Source: an archaeon (lineage in GTDB: Archaea; Aenigmatarchaeota; Aenigmatarchaeia; Aenigmatarchaeales; DATDXV01). Taken from it: a DNA stretch of 47,223 nucleotides. The DNA is taken from assembly GCA_035289205.1 (NCBI GenBank), contig DATDXV010000008.1, positions 1-47,223 on the forward strand, in the 5' to 3' direction. Position 1 is the first letter of the stretch, and each line of letters opens with the position of its first letter. Shown here in pieces: positions 1,722 to 45,873 of the stretch. The translations under genes were made by a program, and so were the position numbers. Below the pieces are notes generated by a model, which had not been told where the DNA came from, did not search any database, and was given only the letters and a program-made list of their open reading frames with translations.

Positions 1722-1752
1722 AGAAGCTATTGCATTCTGTGGATAAAAAGAA

Positions 1753-1923
1753 TGGCGGTCGGGCCGGGAAATTCGCTGCTTCAGCAGTTTCGAACCCGGG
1801 TGTGTTGAAGGTTAACAGTAGTTAACCCTTCTCAGCCTCTCTGCATTAGTATTCGACAGAGCCGAATACTAACCACTATTAGCTGAATAGAGGACTTACC
1901 TCACAATCAAATACTACCCGACC
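1753..1923 (-). tRNA. tRNA-Asp (anticodon GTC), 171-nt gene with four intervening sequences
   Basis: Exons give GGTCGGG-TA-GTAT-AGTGGTTA-GTAT-T-CGGCT-CTGTCGA-GGCTG-(variable)-CCGGG-TTCGAAT-CCCGG-CCCGACC-G-CCA. Intron 1 is 1878..1910 (33 nt, position 13/14; central helix TAGT/GCTA). Intron 2 is 1839..1853 (15 nt, 37/38; CTGT/GCAG). Intron 3 is about 1804..1828 (variable region, GGTTAAC/GTTAACC hairpin, TGAG/TTCA; boundaries uncertain). Intron 4 is 1770..1788 (19 nt, 59/60; perfect hBHBh': CCGGG-TTCG-[AAA]-CTGC..GCAG-CGAA-[TTT]-CCCGG). G73 and G15/C48 are present. Confidence 0.8.
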
Positions 1924-1946
1924 ATGTCTTAAATTTATGTTTATCA

Positions 1947-1952
1947 TTTAAA
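1947..1952 (-). promoter_or_regulatory. TATA box (TTTAAA) for tRNA-Asp
   Basis: Centre lies 26-27 nt upstream of the tRNA 5' end at 1923. The same spacing is seen at the 5S gene and at several leaderless CDS. Confidence 0.6.
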
Positions 1953-1974
1953 TAATAGCATTCTTAGCCGCATT

Positions 1975-2643
1975 TTATAGATCTAGTAGCTTTAATTTTT
2001 CATGTACACCTTCTCTAATTCTATTTTTCTTATGAACTATTCTTATATGGGGTAAGATGCAATTTTTAATAAAAAGCACGTTTTTTCTAGAAATACAGAA
2101 CTCTGTTTCATGCCATCTCCCTTCAACTATTCTTCCATCTCTGAAAACAGATATTCCATATCTTTTGGTAACAGATACACCACATTTCATGAATTTCTCA
2201 ATAATGCTTATTAATTTCTTATTTTTCTTGTCATCTGTTATCCTTATAACATATTGGGGAGATTGCATTCTTTTGATTCTTACATCTCCGTCTCCATCTA
2301 TTACTCCTGCTAGATAAGCGCCAAAATTTGCTTCATAATTAGATACCCAAGCAGGAATTCCTGTTTTTGCTATACCCTCTTTTCCAAACCTTTTAAGTAA
2401 CTTATTCACAGACGTATGTATGTCAATTGTTCCATCTCTTAGAGTATGTATGGTTAAATCTCTACCGTATACTTCCCTTAGTGTTTTTCGGAACTCTTTT
2501 AACATCGGTATTGATTTGATACCAACATGTACTCCTATGTCTGTTCTTTTATAGATTTTATTTCTTTTCATAGTATTGTAAGTAGTTAGCTTTCCGTCGG
2601 TTTGTAGCACGCCTAAGAAATATGCTAATCTTTGATAATCCAT
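1975..2643 (-). CDS. LAGLIDADG homing endonuclease, double-motif, free-standing
   Basis: 222 aa with two LAGLIDADG motifs: LAYFLGVLQTDGKL near the N-terminus and FGAYLAGVIDGDGDV mid-protein. Visibly more A+T-rich than its neighbours. Not embedded in a recognisable intron or intein. Confidence 0.8.
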   Translation of the reverse strand: MDYQRLAYFLGVLQTDGKLTTYNTMKRNKIYKRTDIGVHVGIKSIPMLKEFRKTLREVYGRDLTIHTLRDGTIDIHTSVNKLLKRFGKEGIAKTGIPAWVSNYEANFGAYLAGVIDGDGDVRIKRMQSPQYVIRITDDKKNKKLISIIEKFMKCGVSVTKRYGISVFRDGRIVEGRWHETEFCISRKNVLFIKNCILPHIRIVHKKNRIREGVHEKLKLLDL

Positions 2644-2776
2644 ATTTTAGAATGCCTTTTCCTTGGCTTATACCCAATTAACTCTCGGAAGTGAAAATAG
2701 GCAACCTCTGCTTCCTATGGAAATAATCCTAATAGAAGAGAGATGTATTAAAAGCTTTAAGAAACTGTTGGTGCGT

Positions 2777-3424
2777 TCATGATTTTTTCTCCTCTTCTAC
2801 AAGGAAGACTGAAACGAATATGCCGGCCGCATCCTCATACATGGGTCTGCCTGCAGACATGCCAAATGACTTAGCATCAGGGGCCCAGAAGGATCCGACG
2901 GAAGCTTCGCCATTGTCATCAAAATTGATGGGACCCTGGTAAAACTCTACATCGGGCCTTGCCATGAGACCGGGCTTGACAAGGGAGTCGACTGTCCTAA
3001 AACCAGTATTTGTATCGTGCCACTCTCCGTAAACATCCAACTTGCCTCCAGAAGCGTTTATCCTTAGCCTTGTAGCTACCTTGTCTTTCCTGAATAAAGC
3101 ATCTATGTCTATCCAATAGTGAGTCGCCACATCCGGCAACTCGCTTTTTCTGCAGAATATCCTGTCATGAGCAACCTGCGGCGGAACCAGCCCTACAGTC
3201 ATGCCAGACTCGATTGTGATTATCTCCGCCAGCTTCAGCCTGTTCCAGAAATCCAGTCTGGAGAAATAGCTCATGTCTCGTCTTGCCCTGAATCTTTGCG
3301 GTATATCCTTTTCGGAACGGGGAGCGTATAAGCCTGGCTTGGTTGGAGCGGGTATGGAACTGTTGTGTATCTTTTCCCCAATGCAATAGGCAGGCTCGAA
3401 ATGAGTCTCTACATCGCTTGCCAT
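2777..3424 (-). CDS. hypothetical protein (215 aa)
   Basis: Long ORF with coding-like composition. No recognisable motif. Confidence 0.55.
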   Translation of the reverse strand: MASDVETHFEPAYCIGEKIHNSSIPAPTKPGLYAPRSEKDIPQRFRARRDMSYFSRLDFWNRLKLAEIITIESGMTVGLVPPQVAHDRIFCRKSELPDVATHYWIDIDALFRKDKVATRLRINASGGKLDVYGEWHDTNTGFRTVDSLVKPGLMARPDVEFYQGPINFDDNGEASVGSFWAPDAKSFGMSAGRPMYEDAAGIFVSVFLVEEEKKS

Positions 3425-3570
3425 AAAAAACTTAGGCTTCCAATCTTTTTAAACGCTTACAGATTTTGGTGTTTCCTGTTAACCAAACCGCCCTGATACA
3501 GAGTCCACCCGGCTTTCTTATTTCTGAGAAATATCTTCTCCATGCCTCTGAACTCCCTTATGCTACCATG

Positions 3571-3933
3571 TCAGCTGTTGACATATTTCCATCCTGGCAT
3601 CTCTTTTGCAGAAAATGCTTTAGGTCCCCTCCAAGGAGCGCTTTTAGGAGGACTCTGCAAAGCCTTCTTGACAAAGCTTAGCATCTCCTTATAGTTCTTC
3701 GGGTTCCAGAAACCGCGATAAGACATAGACCACACAGGCAGTTTCTTGAACCATACAATTTCCAAGCCCTGGAACGGTTCCCCTCCAACATACTGATCAA
3801 CGTATGTCCAGTCTCCTTTGTTGATTACTATGGTCTTAAGCCCTGGTCTGGGAGCAGATTCTTTTGCATCCCTGTCTGCCCAGCCTTCAATAGAATTAAG
3901 AAACTTTAGCAAGTCCTTGACTGTAAAAGACAT
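3571..3933 (-). CDS. hypothetical protein, DUF5680-like (start corrected to MSFTVKD)
   Basis: The track ORF 3571..4029 runs into the 5S rRNA gene. The ATG at 3933 lies about 26 nt downstream of TTTTTAAT (3955..3962). The conserved-looking core DWTYVDQYVGGEPFQGLEIVWFKKLPVWSMSYRG resembles DUF5680 from memory. Confidence 0.5.
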   Translation of the reverse strand: MSFTVKDLLKFLNSIEGWADRDAKESAPRPGLKTIVINKGDWTYVDQYVGGEPFQGLEIVWFKKLPVWSMSYRGFWNPKNYKEMLSFVKKALQSPPKSAPWRGPKAFSAKEMPGWKYVNS

Positions 3934-3957
3934 AAGAAACATTGGTTTAGTATAATT

Positions 3958-3964: not shown

Positions 3965-4114
3965 TGTCTCCAGCGTCCTGATCTTCCCGTCTTTTCGACA
4001 GTACAAACCAGATCGATGCGCCGATTCACTTCCGTGTTCGTTCCACGTCAATAGCTATTAAAACCACAGACCGAATGGGAACGGGTCTTACCGAGCGCTC
4101 TTTGACCGGAGACA
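3965..4114 (-). rRNA. rrf: 5S rRNA gene (150 nt) containing a 32-nt BHB intron; mature about 118 nt
   Basis: The sense strand begins UGUCUCCGGUCAAAGAGCGCUCGGUAAGACCCGUUCCCAUUC, then the intron, then CGAACACGGAAGUGAAUCGGCGCAUCGAUCUGGUUUGUACUGUCGAAAAGACGGGAAGAUCAGGACGCUGGAGACA. Helix I is 9 bp (UGUCUCCGG/CUGGAGACA). After splicing, loop C reads CCCAUUCCGAAC followed by GGAAGUGAA. GUACUG and CGGGAAG elements are present. A TATA box sits at -26 and a T5 run follows the 3' end. Confidence 0.85.
4041..4072 (-). other. BHB intron inside 5S rRNA loop C (32 nt)
   Basis: Canonical hBHBh'. Outer helix GUUC/GAAC, central helix CCAU/GUGG, bulges UC|G and AA|C on opposite strands, inner helix GUC/GAC. Cleavage after the 2nd bulge nucleotide joins ...CCCAUUC to CGAAC.... 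Confidence 0.8.
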
Positions 4115-4149: not shown

Positions 4150-4300
4150 TGGTCCCCGCTGGGTGATTTGAACACCCGACCTATCGGTGATTGCGGAGCG
4201 TTGCTAAATGATAAACACTAAGCGTGCTCATCTACAGCCGATCGCTCTACCAGTCTTTTAGCTACAGACTCCCACTAGAGTCTATAAGAGCTAAGCGGGG
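4150..4300 (-). tRNA. tRNA-Tyr (anticodon GTA) with two introns
   Basis: CCCCGCT-TA-GCTC[intron 4257..4287, 31 nt at 13/14]AGACTGGTA-GAGC-G-ATCGG-CTGTAG[intron 4189..4231, 43 nt at 37/38]A-CCGAT-AGGTC-GGGTG-TTCAAAT-CACCC-AGCGGGG-A-CCA. C1-G72 is typical of archaeal tRNA-Tyr. Intron 1 is a perfect BHB (central TAGC/GCTA, 9-bp inner helix). Intron 2 is relaxed. Confidence 0.9.
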
Positions 4301-5768: not shown

Positions 5769-6995
5769 CTATAAGACTTTGCCCCATCCGATAAGATGCC
5801 ATCTCTCCCCGTACTTCCTGGAAAGCACGATCTTCTCCCCTTTCCCTATGCATATGGGTATTCTTAGGTCAAACGAAACAACGCCCTTCTTAAAGCCTGT
5901 TGCTGTCCCGACAGTCTTCGCTATCCCTGCGTTCAAAAGAAGCAGTTCCCCGTTCTTGACGCTCTCTATTCTCTGCTCTCCAATCTTGTCAAAAAGAGTT
6001 ATTTGGGCGCTTAGGGAGTTCAAAACAGGCGGCAGTTCCCTTCCTGCAAGGTTTCCTCCTATGGAATCAGCTTTTGTGTTGGAGGGGTCCAGCGTTGTTT
6101 TGATGCCAAGCAGCCCTCCCGGTCCTGCTTCATCAAGATCCTTTCCAGCCTTCTGTATTCCAATAACCTTTGTTTTGAGGGGAACGGTCTTGCTTCCGAT
6201 CCTGATGCCGGGCCTTATTTCTATTTCATCATTGATCTTAAGCATGCCCTGGACAAGCGATCCGCCCAGGATCCCCCCGTTCATCCCCTCAGGCTCTGTC
6301 CCGGGCCTGTTTATGTCAAATGATCTTAGAACCATTAACCTGGCAGAAAGACTGGGATCCCTCTTTGGCGTTTTTATGATTTCTTCTATCGCCTCCAGCA
6401 GCTTGTCTATATTTACCCCCTGCTTTGATGACACAGGGACTATAGGAGCATTTTCAGCAACGCTTCCCTTAAGGAACTCTTTTATCTGCCTGTAATTATT
6501 CAATGCCTGCTCCTTTGCAACAAGGTCTACCTTTGTCTGCGCTATGACGATGTTCTTTATCCCGACTATGTCTAAAACCTTTAGGTGCTCCCTTGTCTGC
6601 GTCTGGGGGCATTCCTGGTTCGCAGCTATCACAAACAGGACCCCGTCCATCAGGGCTGCGCCGGAGATGACTGTTGCCATTAATGTTTCGTGCCCCGGGG
6701 CGTCAACAAACGAAACAGTTCTTACAGCTTCGCACTTCTCGAAGTCCTTCTTGCATTTCTCTGTCAAGGACAAACTAGAGCATTTTGTGCATTTGTAGAT
6801 AGTTGCGTCAGCATATCCTATCTTTATTGTAATGCCCCTCTTCAATTCTTCGGAGTGCTGCATCGGCATTTTTCCCGTTATTGCCTGGACTAAAGTGGAT
6901 TTTCCGTGGTCAACGTTTTCGGTCAGACAAAAAGAATTTGTCTAATGTCCGAGCGTCCCTATATTGACCTCTGGAATCAGTCTGGGGTCAGTCAT
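5769..6995 (-). CDS. eif2g: translation initiation factor aIF2 gamma, interrupted by a 30-nt intron (exons 6947..6995 and 5769..6916)
   Basis: Exon 1 encodes MTDPRLIPEVNIGTLG(H). Exon 2 continues (H)VDHGKSTLVQAITGKMPMQHSEELKRGITI...DAPGHE...TKVDL.... The spliced length is 1197 nt, or 398 aa. The track ORF 5769..6869 begins at an internal Met and lacks the P-loop. Confidence 0.85.
6917..6946 (-). other. 30-nt BHB intron in the aIF2-gamma coding sequence (contains an in-frame TAG)
   Basis: Sense AUUAGACAAAUUCUUUUUGUCUGACCGAAA. Central helix UCGG/CCGA (4 WC bp), bulges AC|A and AA|A, inner 9-bp helix UUAGACAAA/UUUGUCUGA with loop UUCUU, outer helix GACG/CGUU. Excision gives CUC GGA CAC GUU GAC CAC GGA AAA = LGHVDHGK. 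Confidence 0.75.
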
Positions 6996-9819: not shown

Positions 9820-10113
9820 ATGCCGCCAACCGCAGAGATAACATTTTATCGGGGCTTTGACATGCCTGTGACAAGACTTGAGGAAACGCCCGATCCTGTT
9901 GAAGAAATTGCAAGGAACTTCCTGAAGTATCTGAAAGGAAGGGGCATAGATTATACTGTAGAAGAACGAGATCTGAAGGAGGGGAGGCTTGTTATAAAGG
10001 GTGAGAGTCTGAAGGAACTTGACGTAGAAGGTGCGATGAACTCTGCCAAGCGCATTTACGCTAATTTCTGGGGCAAGAATGTCGGGACGCAAATAGAATT
10101 CAAAAAAGACTAG
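9820..10113 (+). CDS. hypothetical protein (97 aa)
   Basis: ORF with an upstream TTTAAA-like box (GATTTAAATCC about 9788..9798). Confidence 0.5.
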   Translation: MPPTAEITFYRGFDMPVTRLEETPDPVEEIARNFLKYLKGRGIDYTVEERDLKEGRLVIKGESLKELDVEGAMNSAKRIYANFWGKNVGTQIEFKKD

Positions 10114-41957: not shown

Positions 41958-42761
41958 TTGCCGATAAATGCGAGTGCTGAATTCTTCATAGCTCAGGACA
42001 AATATAACAAAGCCAGGACAAGGGAGGAAAGGATTGAAGCTCTGGAGGAGATGATAAGGTTTGCTCCCAGACATAAAGGAGGAGAAGCACTTCGGGCTCA
42101 ACTGAATTCTAGATTAGCAAAGTTAAAGGAGTCGAAGGGAGGAAAGGCTGCCTTCAAGAAAACCTCCATTTCAAAGGAAGGAGATGTTCAGGTTTGCATA
42201 GTAGGCTTGACGCAATCCGGAAAATCTACCCTTCTCTCCGAACTTACCAATGCAAAGCCAAATATATCTGACAGGCCTTTCACAACAACGAAACCGGAGG
42301 TTGGCATAGCAGAATGGGAGGGCGTAAAGTTCCAAGCAATAGAGATTCCTTCCATGTTTCGCAGCATAGACTTTTCCATTATGAGATCTTCTGATATAAT
42401 AATAATTGTTGCAAGAAACAAAGCTGACAAGGAACAGGTTCTGCAGTTGCTGGATGCTAACAGAGTAAAGAAGCCATCAGTTGTCTACGGGGAGGGGAAA
42501 CTTTTTGACAATATCTGGAAGGAACTTAGCCTGATAAGGGTTTATACAAAGGAGCCAGGAAAGACTGTGGAGAAGAGAGCTTTGGTTCTGAAAGACAATG
42601 CTACAGTAAGGGTCGCAGCGGAGAAGATACATAAGGATTTCTTGAAGTTCTTCAAATTCGCGCGTGTGTGGGGGAAGTCTGTTTCACATCGAGGGGAGAA
42701 GGTAGGACTGGGTCACAGACTGGATGATAAGGATGTAGTAGAGTTTCACTTGAGCAGCTAA
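41958..42761 (+). CDS. DRG/Obg-like GTP-binding protein with TGS domain, shortened G domain
   Basis: TTG start. G1 VGLTQSGKSTLL, G2 FTT, and TGS IRVYTKEPGK...FKFARVWGKSV...GEKVGLGHRLDDKDVVEFH. The G3 DxxG position reads IEIPSMF. 267 aa versus about 360 for typical archaeal DRG. Confidence 0.65.
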   Translation: MPINASAEFFIAQDKYNKARTREERIEALEEMIRFAPRHKGGEALRAQLNSRLAKLKESKGGKAAFKKTSISKEGDVQVCIVGLTQSGKSTLLSELTNAKPNISDRPFTTTKPEVGIAEWEGVKFQAIEIPSMFRSIDFSIMRSSDIIIIVARNKADKEQVLQLLDANRVKKPSVVYGEGKLFDNIWKELSLIRVYTKEPGKTVEKRALVLKDNATVRVAAEKIHKDFLKFFKFARVWGKSVSHRGEKVGLGHRLDDKDVVEFHLSS

Positions 42762-43969
42762 ATCTTCGGCTTCTCTATCCTTATTACATCCAGCTCTATG
42801 CATTTGCATTTCTTATTCAAAAGAGAACTTACAGCGGGATTTGTCCTTCCTTCATCACCGCTTACAACCTCTTTCACATAAAGCCCCCCTTCGCATTCCA
42901 GAACCAATTCAAATGTCTTGCTGTTTTTGTATTTCCATTTGACACTCTTGATAGTCCTCCTTCTCACAATGTCCGCCCTTCTATGAGCTACTCTGTTGGG
43001 TGTTCTTTGTTCTATTATTCTCTTGAGGCTTCTTAGAACCGAGAGTTCTTTCTTTGAGATAGGCTTATCGCATCTTACAAGCATTCTGTATGTTTTGTCA
43101 AGTTTCAGCTCCTTGACTCTTTTTACGTAGCTGCTGTCTACAATCCTTAGTCCCTTTACCTTTACCCTCTTATCTTTGTTTATCAGTTTCTCCGCGCTCT
43201 TCAGGTCAATCTTTCTCTTCAGTGGATCCTTTATCTCCAGAACGAATGGTCTGGAGGCTAGACACAATGCATCTTTGTCTTCTCTCCCTCCCCCATGAAA
43301 TGTATGTCCAATTCCATGGGATGCTTTCATTACAGGCTTTGCAATTATCTCCTCTACAGATGTTTTGTGATATCTTCTCCATTTCGCTTGTGGCATATTT
43401 CTTGCAAGCTTGCTGTAATAGCCGAAGATGAACAGCGGGGTTATTTTCAAGCCAACCTTCTTTGCGTCCAGATCGAGGAACATGACAACATCCGGCCTTT
43501 TGAAGTCTGCCCTGATATTGAGCTTTGCTTCAACCAGCTTTCCCACTTCCCTGTTTATTTCGCCCTTTATAGGTTCGCAATACTCTATTCCTGTTCTCTC
43601 CCATAGCTTCTCCTCGTTTTCAAGGATCTTCTTTGGAGGCTTTGTGCCTACAAGAAATGTCGAGAAGTGAATCCCCTTCGCGCTTTTTACCGCCATTTCC
43701 GCAAACTTGTCTAATTTCTCCAGAGCGCCTTCGCATACCCAGCATCCAGATCTCTTTCCCTCCATCTTGATCTTTCTGAACTTGAAATCATGGAAGTTGG
43801 AGGGGTCAACATCAAGCTTCTCGCCTGAATCCAGGGCGAACGCAACAGCGCTCCTAAGCAAAGCGCCGCGCTCTTTGTTTGTGTAGCCAGAGAGGAGTTT
43901 TGAGAACTGGCGTCCTAAACATCTATCGCACACAGGTTTCTCCAGAACCCTTGCAACTTTGTCAAGCAT
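42758..43969 (-). CDS. pus10: tRNA pseudouridine synthase Pus10
   Basis: VCDRCLGRQF, CWVCEG (THUMP/Zn module), RTPNRVAHRRADIVRRR, GGLYVKEVVSGDEGRTNP. The real start is MLDKVARV at 43969. The track ORF extension overlaps the upstream gene. Confidence 0.85.
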   Translation of the reverse strand: MLDKVARVLEKPVCDRCLGRQFSKLLSGYTNKERGALLRSAVAFALDSGEKLDVDPSNFHDFKFRKIKMEGKRSGCWVCEGALEKLDKFAEMAVKSAKGIHFSTFLVGTKPPKKILENEEKLWERTGIEYCEPIKGEINREVGKLVEAKLNIRADFKRPDVVMFLDLDAKKVGLKITPLFIFGYYSKLARNMPQAKWRRYHKTSVEEIIAKPVMKASHGIGHTFHGGGREDKDALCLASRPFVLEIKDPLKRKIDLKSAEKLINKDKRVKVKGLRIVDSSYVKRVKELKLDKTYRMLVRCDKPISKKELSVLRSLKRIIEQRTPNRVAHRRADIVRRRTIKSVKWKYKNSKTFELVLECEGGLYVKEVVSGDEGRTNPAVSSLLNKKCKCIELDVIRIEKPKI

Positions 43970-44004
43970 TAGAAGACTATGCTTATTGTAGTATTTTAAT
44001 GCGC

Positions 44005-45873
44005 CTAAACGCCCATCATGACCCTCATCACAATGAGCGCTAGCGTAAAGAGAATCGTGGCGCCTGCTGTGGACTTTGCTATCTCCATCCCGAGCTGGAC
44101 ACTGTCTGAGCCATAGGCCAGTATTGATATGTATCTTATCAGAACAAACGACAGCCCGATCATGTACACTCCAAGTATAAGCTGAAGGACAGGCGCGGGA
44201 AGATCTGGCTGCTGCACTGGCGTGTTCAATCCAAGCCCTGCCCCCGAGAATGCGCTGCTTGATTCTGTCGTGGAAATCACCCCCTTCACTATAAGCAGGA
44301 ATAAAACAACAACAACCGCCGCCACAACTGGCGCAAATAGCACAGCTGTCAATTTCATCATGGAAAGGTTCCTCTGCAGCATATTCATCATGTTCCGCTC
44401 TATCCTCTTCAGCCTTGTCACATATTTTATCAGGACCGTGCATGTTGCGGCGGTGAATTTGACACCTCTTTTCATTGAGCTTGCAATAAGGGAAAGGACA
44501 GATCTTAACAGTGACGAGCTCTTCTCAAAGGGGCTTTCATCTCCTAGGAGGACGTCATCAAGCGAGAGGTTTCTCCTTCTTATCAGTATGGAGGCCTTCT
44601 CAAAGCTCTCTGACAGGGACTTGTTGGAGCGCATCTTCGCTATTTTCTCAAAGGTCTCCTCCACAGGTTTTCCTTCCATAAGGCCGCTGCGAAGGTAATA
44701 GAGGGCGTCAGGCACGGAGTTCTCCATGTTTGAGATTCTGTCCCTTTCGGATTTCTTGAACCATGTGGTGCCGTAATAATAGATGAATATGGCAGCTCCA
44801 AATCCCCAGATCATCGGCAGCGTGTTCAGCGTTTCCAGTATTATGCTGAATGTCTCGTTGTTTGAGACAAGGACATTGCTCAGGTTGATCAGATAGAAGA
44901 TAGAAGGGATGGAGAGCAGGATCAGCGCTATCAGTGCTGTCGGAATCGCGGGCAGCATCACGCCGTTTGCAAGGTATATGTAACCCGAGGGAACGCTGCT
45001 CTTCACCTCGATCAATGAAAGCGTCGGGGGCCTCTTCCTCAGGACCCTTTGCGAATAAACATATACTGCCGCCAGGGATGCGAAAAGCGCCAGTGCAATG
45101 TGCTGTGTTGACGTCTGGTATCCGAAGAAGCTCATAAGGGGGAAGAGCGACACAATGATCAGGGGTATCATCACTCCGAAGCTGAATATGACAAGCGTAG
45201 GGGTATGTAGGCTGAATGCGTAATCTCTCATCTTGTCCACGAAGTCATTTAATGTGACAGAGACAGCCATGTCAAGCGTCTCGCGCTTTCTCACGGGGTC
45301 TTTCTCATGGAAGCTGGAGAGGATCAGGTATATTGACCTCTTCAGCCCCTCCGACCAGACGCCCCATTTCTCCGCGATCTCCTCCATGGATTTGGATATG
45401 CTAGAGCTCTTGCCAGACCATGTGTCTCTTAGCGCTCCTTTGAAATCATCAGCCAGAGCGCCCTCATTATACTGAGTTACAAACTCAACAGCCCTTTCAA
45501 TATTTGGGTTTTGTTTTAAGATTGTTGACAGCTGCGCAATAAGCTGCGGTGCCGCCCCAAGGGCGGAGACAGCTCTGTCCCTTGCAGCGCTCTTCGGATA
45601 CTCGCCTATCAGGTGGTTTGAAAGAAGCGATACAACAACGCCTATTATTATCAGGAGCATTATGTCCCATCCTATGAAAGCTCCGATCATGACAAAGATC
45701 AGGGATATTATTGTTGCAAGAACTGTTGCTCCCCTGGCAGCCCTCAAAACAGCCTGCGGTTCTATGTCCCACTTCAAGAAGTCAAGGGCTTCGACAAGCT
45801 CCTGGCTTGGCGCTGCCTTTTCTCCCAGGTTGAATCTCTCCAGGAACCTGCAAAGTTTCAGGTAGAAGCCCAT
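44005..45873 (-). CDS. type IV pilus/archaellum-type platform membrane protein (FlaJ/TadC family)
   Basis: 622 aa with many TM segments and two cytoplasmic domains. It lies immediately downstream of the secretion ATPase. Confidence 0.7.
   Translation of the reverse strand: MGFYLKLCRFLERFNLGEKAAPSQELVEALDFLKWDIEPQAVLRAARGATVLATIISLIFVMIGAFIGWDIMLLIIIGVVVSLLSNHLIGEYPKSAARDRAVSALGAAPQLIAQLSTILKQNPNIERAVEFVTQYNEGALADDFKGALRDTWSGKSSSISKSMEEIAEKWGVWSEGLKRSIYLILSSFHEKDPVRKRETLDMAVSVTLNDFVDKMRDYAFSLHTPTLVIFSFGVMIPLIIVSLFPLMSFFGYQTSTQHIALALFASLAAVYVYSQRVLRKRPPTLSLIEVKSSVPSGYIYLANGVMLPAIPTALIALILLSIPSIFYLINLSNVLVSNNETFSIILETLNTLPMIWGFGAAIFIYYYGTTWFKKSERDRISNMENSVPDALYYLRSGLMEGKPVEETFEKIAKMRSNKSLSESFEKASILIRRRNLSLDDVLLGDESPFEKSSSLLRSVLSLIASSMKRGVKFTAATCTVLIKYVTRLKRIERNMMNMLQRNLSMMKLTAVLFAPVVAAVVVVLFLLIVKGVISTTESSSAFSGAGLGLNTPVQQPDLPAPVLQLILGVYMIGLSFVLIRYISILAYGSDSVQLGMEIAKSTAGATILFTLALIVMRVMMGV

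Follow-up and report, generated by a model that had tools for sequence, protein, structure and literature searches.

The tRNA-Asp locus

The stretch analyzed here, hereafter the window, is an entire metagenomic contig of 47,223 nt with 49 open reading frames (ORFs) and a G+C content of ~44%. A tRNA-Asp(GUC) gene lies near one end on the minus strand, its five exons separated by four short intervening sequences (Table 1). The exons have a G+C content of 61%, the introns of 33–47%. A TATA-like box is predicted upstream of the gene, and a T-rich tract follows the encoded CCA. The same box is found at a similar distance upstream of intronless orthologues.

Pfam scans identified a set of archaeal genes on the contig, including those for aIF2-gamma, aIF5B, S6e, Trm1, Pus10, RpoF, GGGP synthase and TFS. 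The nearest named relatives of the aIF2-gamma are metagenome-assembled genomes (MAGs) of Candidatus Aenigmatarchaeota, at about 60–64% identity, and that of one MAG locus, L042 (GCA_053536835.1), is 88% identical. On sequence grounds, the host is an uncultured, ultrasmall DPANN archaeon near the Aenigmatarchaeota and not a member of the Thermoproteales. A 290-nt segment spanning the tRNA-Asp gene recurs at 100% identity in ten further contigs from at least seven independent assemblies or samples, which rules out an assembly artefact. Samples in which the contig is present include ERZ28563803, JGI 3300002502 and SRR3989344. The methyltransferase gene adjoining tRNA-Asp differs on contigs of the same population (96% identity), while the tRNA-Asp gene there is identical. 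Beyond this variant, the remaining matches to the methyltransferase neighbor are at most 55% identical and lie in unrelated gene contexts.

Table 1. Features of the tRNA-Asp locus and of other interrupted genes in the window (H, central helix, with pairs formed in parentheses; ↓, cleavage site or insertion point; registers A and B are described in the text)
Feature	Coordinates	Strand	Description
tRNA-Asp(GUC) gene	1753..1923	-	five colinear exons and four intervening sequences in 171 nt, from sequence
Promoter box	1946..1953	-	TATA-like ATTTAAAT, predicted from sequence; center ~26 nt upstream of tRNA position 1
Exon 1	1911..1923	-	GGTCGGGTAGTAT; positions 1-13: 5' acceptor strand, U8, A9, 5' D-stem strand
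Intron 1	1878..1910	-	33 nt at 13/14; relaxed HBh'; H = UAGU/GCUA (4/4), bulges AU↓U and AU↓A
Exon 2	1854..1877	-	AGTGGTTAGTATTCGGCTCTGTCG; positions 14-37: D loop, 3' D-stem strand, 5' anticodon-stem strand, anticodon GUC
Intron 2	1839..1853	-	15 nt at canonical 37/38; H = CUGU/GCAG (4/4), bulges CG↓A and AG↓A
Exon 3, register B	1831..1838	-	AGGCTGAG; positions 38-45 (extent in register A, 1829..1838)
Intron 3, register B (favored)	1802..1830	-	29 nt at 45/46; H = GCUG/CAAC (3/4, one C·A mismatch), bulges AG↓A and AC↓A
Intron 3, register A (alternative)	1804..1828	-	25 nt; H = UGAG/UUCA (4/4), 7-bp inner helix
Exon 4	1789..1801	-	ACCCGGGTTCGAA; positions 46-59: end of variable loop, 5' T-stem strand, most of T loop
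Intron 4	1770..1788	-	19 nt at 59/60; strict hBHBh'; H = UUCG/CGAA (4/4), bulges AA↓A and UU↓U
Exon 5	1753..1769	-	TCCCGGCCCGACCGCCA; positions 60-73 and encoded CCA
T-rich tract	1745..1752	-	TTCTTTTT, directly 3' of CCA; likely transcription stop
tRNA-Tyr(GUA) gene	4150..4300	-	introns of 31 nt at 13/14 (4257..4287) and 43 nt at 37/38 (4189..4231)
5S rRNA insert	4041..4072	-	32 nt in gene 3965..4113; BHB rule, H = CCAU/GUGG
aIF2-gamma insert	6917..6946	-	30 nt with stop codon, in gene 5769..~6995; P-loop codons GTLGH↓VDHGKS

All four segments must be removed

A preliminary description of the locus had read it as a tRNA-Asp gene with anticodon GUC, G73 and CCA, interrupted by four intervening sequences in 171 nt, and had proposed running ARAGORN on it. 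Without splicing, ARAGORN detects no tRNA in the whole window, and the tRNA-Asp locus goes unmatched by the Rfam tRNA model even at E ≤ 10, as expected because of the four inserts. When the four segments drawn in that description are removed, ARAGORN calls a tRNA-Asp(gtc) of 79 nt; with intron 3 revised as discussed below, the call is a tRNA-Asp of 75 nt. Among the 16 combinations of partial splicing, tRNA-Asp was called only for full splicing and for the combination that keeps intron 2 alone, where ARAGORN itself reports a 15-nt intron at position 38, i(38,15). Because only these 2 of the 16 combinations give tRNA-Asp, removal of all four segments is needed. Both the identity of the gene and the number of its intervening sequences are therefore confirmed.

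The individual junctions were compared with the bulge–helix–bulge (BHB) rule, in which a 4-bp central helix, H, is flanked by a 3-nt bulge on each strand and cleavage follows the second bulge nucleotide. Introns 1, 2 and 4 each form all four pairs of H in exactly the register set by the cloverleaf, in agreement with the preliminary description. When introns were shuffled, an in-register 4/4 helix arose in 3–5% of trials for each of these three, giving a joint chance of ~1 in 10,000. The rule was calibrated within the window, where it correctly reproduces the 37/38 junctions of tRNA-Met (H = CUCA/UGAG) and tRNA-Lys (H = CUUU/GAAG), and splicing of both restores 7-nt anticodon loops. A loose scan of the entire window for BHB-like motifs gave ~600 matches versus ~430 in shuffles and was too unspecific to use.

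The helices flanking H differ among the four introns. Only intron 4 is a strict hBHBh' motif, with the 5-bp T stem as outer helix and an inner CUGC-UGAA-GCAG hairpin. Introns 1 and 3 are of the HBh' type; intron 1 has an inner UGA/UCA helix and a GAGG/CCUC hairpin and is without an outer helix. Intron 2 is of the hBH/BHL type: the anticodon stem serves as its outer helix, the inner helix is absent, and an 11-nt loop holds the 5' cleavage site. The minimum-free-energy fold of the 171-nt precursor contains the 7-bp acceptor stem together with the complete hBHBh' of intron 4 (z-score −5.7, with 0 of 200 shuffles as good).

Other kinds of interrupted gene and another fold were considered and set aside. 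A split or permuted tRNA gene is ruled out, as all five exons lie in linear order in one 171-nt stretch. Group I and group II self-splicing introns, whose catalytic RNA cores span hundreds of nt, are ruled out by the size of the inserts, only 15–33 nt, and Rfam intron families have no match in the window. A 7-bp hairpin, GUAUUCG/CGAAUAC, was rejected as an alternative anticodon arm, since its loop, GCUCUGU, has C at position 33.

The predicted spliced tRNA-Asp

With intron 3 removed in register B, the spliced tRNA is 75 nt long, GGUCGGGUAGUAUAGUGGUUAGUAUUCGGCUCUGUCGAGGCUGAGACCCGGGUUCGAAUCCCGGCCCGACCGCCA, with exon junctions GUAU↓AGUGG, CUGUCG↓AGGCUG, GGCUGAG↓ACCCGGG and UUCGAA↓UCCCGG. All 21 cloverleaf pairs form (7-bp acceptor, 4-bp D, 5-bp anticodon and 5-bp T stems), and 72 of 72 exon positions are intact. 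The product keeps U8, A14, G18G19, U33, GUUCGAAUC, A58, G73, G10·U25, the anticodon GUC and CCA. We aligned it with ten orthologues. Some of these 11 mature sequences were spliced by hand, which biases the alignment toward structure; nine intronless sequences carry most of its covariation signal. In this alignment 99.1% of cells are paired, and 11 pairs vary in both partners. The covariation score is 0.531; sliding the 3' partners by 1–3 columns lowers it to 0.09 or less and leaves 28–47% of cells paired. G10·U25 and GUC are invariant throughout.

All four tRNA genes of the contig (471..584, 1310..1427, 1753..1923 and 4150..4300) encode their 3' CCA, which the intronless tRNA-Asp genes of the relatives examined do not.

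Orthologues with few or no introns

Species-representative genomes were scanned with a pattern built on exon 2, which found tRNA-Asp in several archaeal MAGs, two of them named Aenigmatarchaeota. Further loci came from a metagenome scan with the small-ORF family described below and from contigs fetched through aIF2-gamma homologues. The order 5S rRNA, tRNA-Asp, small ORF and intron-bearing tRNA-Lys is common to L015, L028, L032–L034, L043, L044 and L048, and tRNA-Tyr precedes 5S rRNA in this conserved order. An 86-aa ORF in the window is 37–39% identical to the small ORF after tRNA-Asp in L015 and L028. A homologue search with the 86-aa ORF returned only itself, and the homologues came from the flanks of the DNA-pattern matches. 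The conserved gene order and the small ORF together identify the window locus as the positional orthologue of the relatives' tRNA-Asp.

These orthologues carry few introns: none in ten loci (L015, L019, L023, L028, L032–L034, L044, L047 and L048), one in L011 (37/38) and two in L043 (25/26 and 37/38). The intronless Aenigmatarchaeota tRNA-Asp genes resemble that of the window in occupying the same slot and in having a GUAU/GUAU D arm with G10·U25, the anticodon loop CUGUCGA, a 4-nt variable loop and G73. They differ in having no introns, no encoded CCA in the genes examined and no ~2-kb spacer with three ORFs after 5S rRNA. Read from this comparison, the four inserts are lineage-specific gains, and gain is already visible within the group. 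The L042 contig ends inside 5S rRNA, before tRNA-Asp, and the L045 and L046 contigs end before the tRNA-Asp slot.

Two registers for intron 3

The stretch around intron 3 reads GGCUG-AG-A-AG-GGUUAAC-UACU-GUUAACC-UU-CAAC-AC-AC-CCGGG. Its AG-A-AG is slippery: either AG can pair with UU, which gives two registers. Register A leaves an 8-nt variable loop, AGAAACAC, in a 79-nt tRNA whose exon junction joins GGCUGAGAA to ACACCCGGG. Register B, cut 2 nt wider on each side, leaves the variable loop AGAC, and its inner helix extends to 9 bp, AGGGUUAAC/GUUAACCUU. The predicted energies are −9.2 kcal/mol for A and −8.6 to −8.9 kcal/mol for B, a gap of 0.3–0.6 kcal/mol. In an exhaustive search of cut pairs, only 1802..1830 combined a variable loop of 4–5 nt with at least three of four pairs in H. 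Three of four pairs in H are also seen where the anticodon loop sets the junction independently, in tRNA-Tyr of the window, tRNA-Tyr of L042 and tRNA-Asp of L043. A mismatch in H therefore appears to be tolerated in this group.

Other interrupted genes on the contig

All four tRNA genes on the contig carry BHB introns. In tRNA-Tyr, Rfam aligns positions 8–63 only, with a score below threshold. Its 13/14 intron lies at the same position as intron 1 of tRNA-Asp and has H = UAGC/GCUA. The tRNA-Tyr gene of L042 has introns at the same two positions; its exons are conserved, as is most of the 37/38 intron, and the sequence of the 13/14 intron has diverged.

Two inserts lie outside tRNA genes. Once the 5S rRNA insert is removed, the gene aligns there without gaps to the relatives' 5S genes, which are 116 nt long. 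The 5S gene (3801..3953) of L047, an Aenigmatarchaeota-type MAG, is interrupted 4 nt beyond this point by a 37-nt insert (H = UCCG/CGGA). The phrase '5S rRNA intron' had no match in the literature searched. The aIF2-gamma insert also fits the BHB rule exactly (H = UCGG/CCGA, 4/4; bulges AC↓A and AA↓A; 9-bp inner helix), and its removal restores GTLGHVDHGKS. L042 has a different 30-nt insert in this gene (9932..9961), 7 nt downstream, and six relatives at ~64% identity are uninterrupted. From its sequence, the aIF2-gamma insert is a candidate BHB intron in a DPANN protein-coding gene, for which cbf5 in Crenarchaeota provides a precedent (PMC2738675). The broken P-loop of an essential GTPase argues strongly that BHB splicing is active and broad in the host.

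On this evidence, ~6.5 kb of the contig would hold eight tRNA introns spread over four genes, half of them in tRNA-Asp, along with one 5S rRNA insert and one aIF2-gamma insert. The inserts of the closest relatives sit 4–7 nt from those of the window and are unrelated in sequence. We tentatively suggest a recent burst of BHB-intron gain in this Aenigmatarchaeota-related lineage, reaching beyond tRNA, at a likelihood that we judge a little short of even.

Several other observations concern the neighborhood. On the minus strand, ~2 kb with three ORFs (1975..3933) separates 5S rRNA from tRNA-Asp, a distance of ~50–70 nt in relatives. The three are a DUF5680 ORF, a 215-aa ORF and an ORF for a two-motif LAGLIDADG endonuclease (1975..2643) that ends 52 nt before tRNA-Asp. 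L042 has a different LAGLIDADG ORF between tRNA-Tyr and 5S rRNA (L042 12702..13409). The exon-2 pattern also matched tRNA-Asp-like 5' halves in MAGs of candidate phyla radiation (CPR) bacteria (L025, L027, L029 and L031), from Saccharibacteria, Paceibacterota, Minisyncoccia and Nomurabacteria. A LAGLIDADG-type ORF directly follows each of these halves, an arrangement that looks like an endonuclease-bearing intron placed after the anticodon. The window LAGLIDADG ORF has no significant similarity to these CPR ORFs, and a relationship between them was discarded. Elsewhere on the contig, the Pus10 ORF (42758..45873, minus strand) is unusually long at 561 aa, with the Pus10 domains beginning only at residue 247, and overlaps a 622-aa ORF that has no Pfam match.

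Proposed splicing route

The steps of transcription, EndA cleavage and RtcB-type ligation are drawn from established archaeal tRNA splicing. For this locus we infer these steps and the order of splicing, as we do the exact boundaries of intron 3. A precursor of ~171 nt would be transcribed from the TATA-box promoter, and each exon–intron pair would adopt a BHB motif or a relaxed form of it. The archaeal tRNA-splicing endonuclease, EndA, would then cut after the second nucleotide of each bulge, at eight sites, and an RtcB-type ligase would join the five exons into the 75-nt tRNA.

Splicing of the four introns is probably ordered. The predicted central helix of intron 3 occupies nucleotides 40–43 (register B) or 42–45 (register A), overlapping the anticodon stem. 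Since that stem is the outer helix of the intron 2 motif, motifs 2 and 3 would be mutually exclusive in time. Adjacent motifs may need sequential removal (PMC8450103). A perfect 10-bp helix, UUAGUAUUCG/CGAAUACUAA (1846..1872, minus strand), also pairs U20–G28 of exon 2 with C36, G37 and nucleotides 1–8 of intron 2. By a rough estimate, such complementarity arises by chance in about 1–3% of cases. This exon 2/intron 2 helix may impose the splicing order.

Alternative readings of the locus

The exon/intron anatomy, the BHB geometry, the orthology and the covarying cloverleaf are direct observations, and they lead us to regard the locus as probably a functional tRNA-Asp(GUC) gene interrupted by four BHB introns, at 13/14, 37/38, 45/46 and 59/60. 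The alternatives concern either the variable region or the fate of the gene as a whole. The preliminary description had placed intron 3 at about 1804..1828 and had flagged its boundaries as uncertain, a caution that the two near-isoenergetic registers bear out. A gene with four introns but with intron 3 cut there, giving the 79-nt product, is unlikely, though it is the most credible of the competing explanations. Register A alone combines all four pairs in H with two clean 3-nt bulges and an inner helix of 7 bp; its stability slightly exceeds that of register B, and ARAGORN still calls its product as tRNA-Asp. However, the variable loop is 4 nt, mostly UGAC, in 10 of 10 orthologues. The register B product aligns to all ten without gaps, and that of register A needs a 4-nt insertion. 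The 8-nt loop also departs from the class I norm, as the variable loop of class I tRNAs is almost always 4–5 nt. Under register A, moreover, it would be a coincidence that the flanking AG...AC recreates the consensus NGAC loop. The BHB-like fold with its 4/4 helix is found where the preliminary description put it, and those coordinates are a legitimate alternative, not an error. The AGAC loop that fits the orthologues makes 1802..1830 (register B) the most likely position, distinctly favored over register A in our reading of the sequence. Keeping the variable-region hairpin as a class II-like long arm, so that only three introns are removed, is a very improbable solution. The hairpin is stable (7–9 bp) and stands where class II tRNAs carry an extra arm, but the variable region would be 33 nt. 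Class II extra arms are roughly 10–24 nt, in Leu-, Ser- or Tyr-type tRNAs, and those known reach about 24 nt at most. The orthologues are all class I with 4-nt loops, and the helix and bulges on either side of the hairpin have BHB geometry. With the hairpin retained, ARAGORN makes no tRNA-Asp call and gives only a forced tRNA-Leu(gag) with an 8-nt 'intron'.

Four introns removed from a functional gene, with intron 3 in register B, remains our preferred reading, against which several points weigh. In register B, intron 3 has the C·A mismatch in H and next to no outer helix. Introns 1 and 3 have relaxed motifs, which would need a broad-specificity endonuclease; relaxed motifs are cut only by such enzymes (PMC3239211), and a link has been drawn between DPANN alpha4 endonucleases bearing an additional L3 loop and greater disruption of tRNA genes (PMC5829648). 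In the Pfam scans, none of the 49 ORFs on the 47-kb contig matched EndA or RtcB. The exon 2/intron 2 helix dominates the minimum-free-energy fold, with 13 bp there, and rivals both the intron 2 BHB and the D stem. No tRNA-Asp intermediate with three or four introns occurs among the relatives' loci, and L042 ends before the gene. Finally, one genome contig is in view, and a second, intron-poor tRNA-Asp copy elsewhere is possible. The last point also favors a decaying or silent gene whose insertions are not all removed and whose function is supplied by another tRNA-Asp, as only 47 kb of the genome is seen. That standard tools miss the locus, that introns 1 and 3 are weak or relaxed and that a strong competing helix forms in the precursor point the same way. 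Even so, we consider a silent gene improbable. The exon positions, cloverleaf pairs and identity elements are all kept, and every insertion lies in the register that restores a canonical tRNA under the BHB rule. The gene stands in the conserved tRNA-Asp slot with its predicted promoter box and terminator tract, and its sequence is invariant in ten contigs while the neighboring methyltransferase varies. Interruptions of the same kind occur in the contig's 5S rRNA and aIF2-gamma genes and in its three remaining tRNA genes.

Comparison with known multi-intron tRNA genes

The documented maximum is three introns per tRNA gene, in sources from 2011 (PMC3239211), 2014 (PMC4033280) and 2021 (tRNAscan-SE 2.0, PMC8450103), and a full-text literature search found no report of a four-intron tRNA gene. 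Four introns in one gene would accordingly exceed the published extreme, as the preliminary description had surmised. Similar genes are known from the Thermoproteales, Pyrobaculum calidifontis among them (Sugahara et al. 2007/2008, cited in PMC4033280 and PMC8450103). They are colinear and carry short BHB or relaxed introns at 37/38 and at non-canonical sites, removed by the splicing endonuclease. They differ in having three introns at most and in belonging to hyperthermophilic crenarchaea, whereas the window gene has four and comes from a DPANN archaeon in environmental metagenomes. ARMAN-2 (Micrarchaeota) is itself a DPANN archaeon and has 59/60 T-loop introns, including strict hBHBh' motifs, and relaxed hBH motifs that are cleaved in vitro. 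However, at most two introns per gene are described there, and ARMAN-2 has an epsilon2 endonuclease (PMC3239211); the window contig is without an EndA gene. Nuclear tRNA genes of Cyanidioschyzon merolae carry BHB-type introns at 37/38 and also in the D and variable arms and the T loop, and reverse transcription PCR showed their ordered removal (PMC3728597). They differ in their eukaryotic nuclear setting, a maximum of three introns and the permutation of some genes (PMC3728597). The mechanism is thus of a known kind, and the intron count and the host lineage are new.

Implications

If the four-intron reading is correct, the documented ceiling of tRNA gene fragmentation rises from three introns to four. 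Extreme intron loads would then not be confined to the Thermoproteales and would extend to DPANN archaea, whose tRNA sets are routinely reported as incomplete. Since neither ARAGORN nor the Rfam tRNA model sees the unspliced gene, tRNAs that seem to be 'missing' from such genomes may have escaped detection rather than been lost. The locus, together with the 5S rRNA and aIF2-gamma inserts, provides a compact natural set of substrates that includes strict, relaxed, ambiguous-register and mutually exclusive motifs. Such a set could be used to study the limits of splicing endonuclease specificity and the spread of BHB introns. A burst of intron gain, if it took place, would imply a very broad reach of the splicing endonuclease and ligase in this lineage and perhaps active intron spreading.

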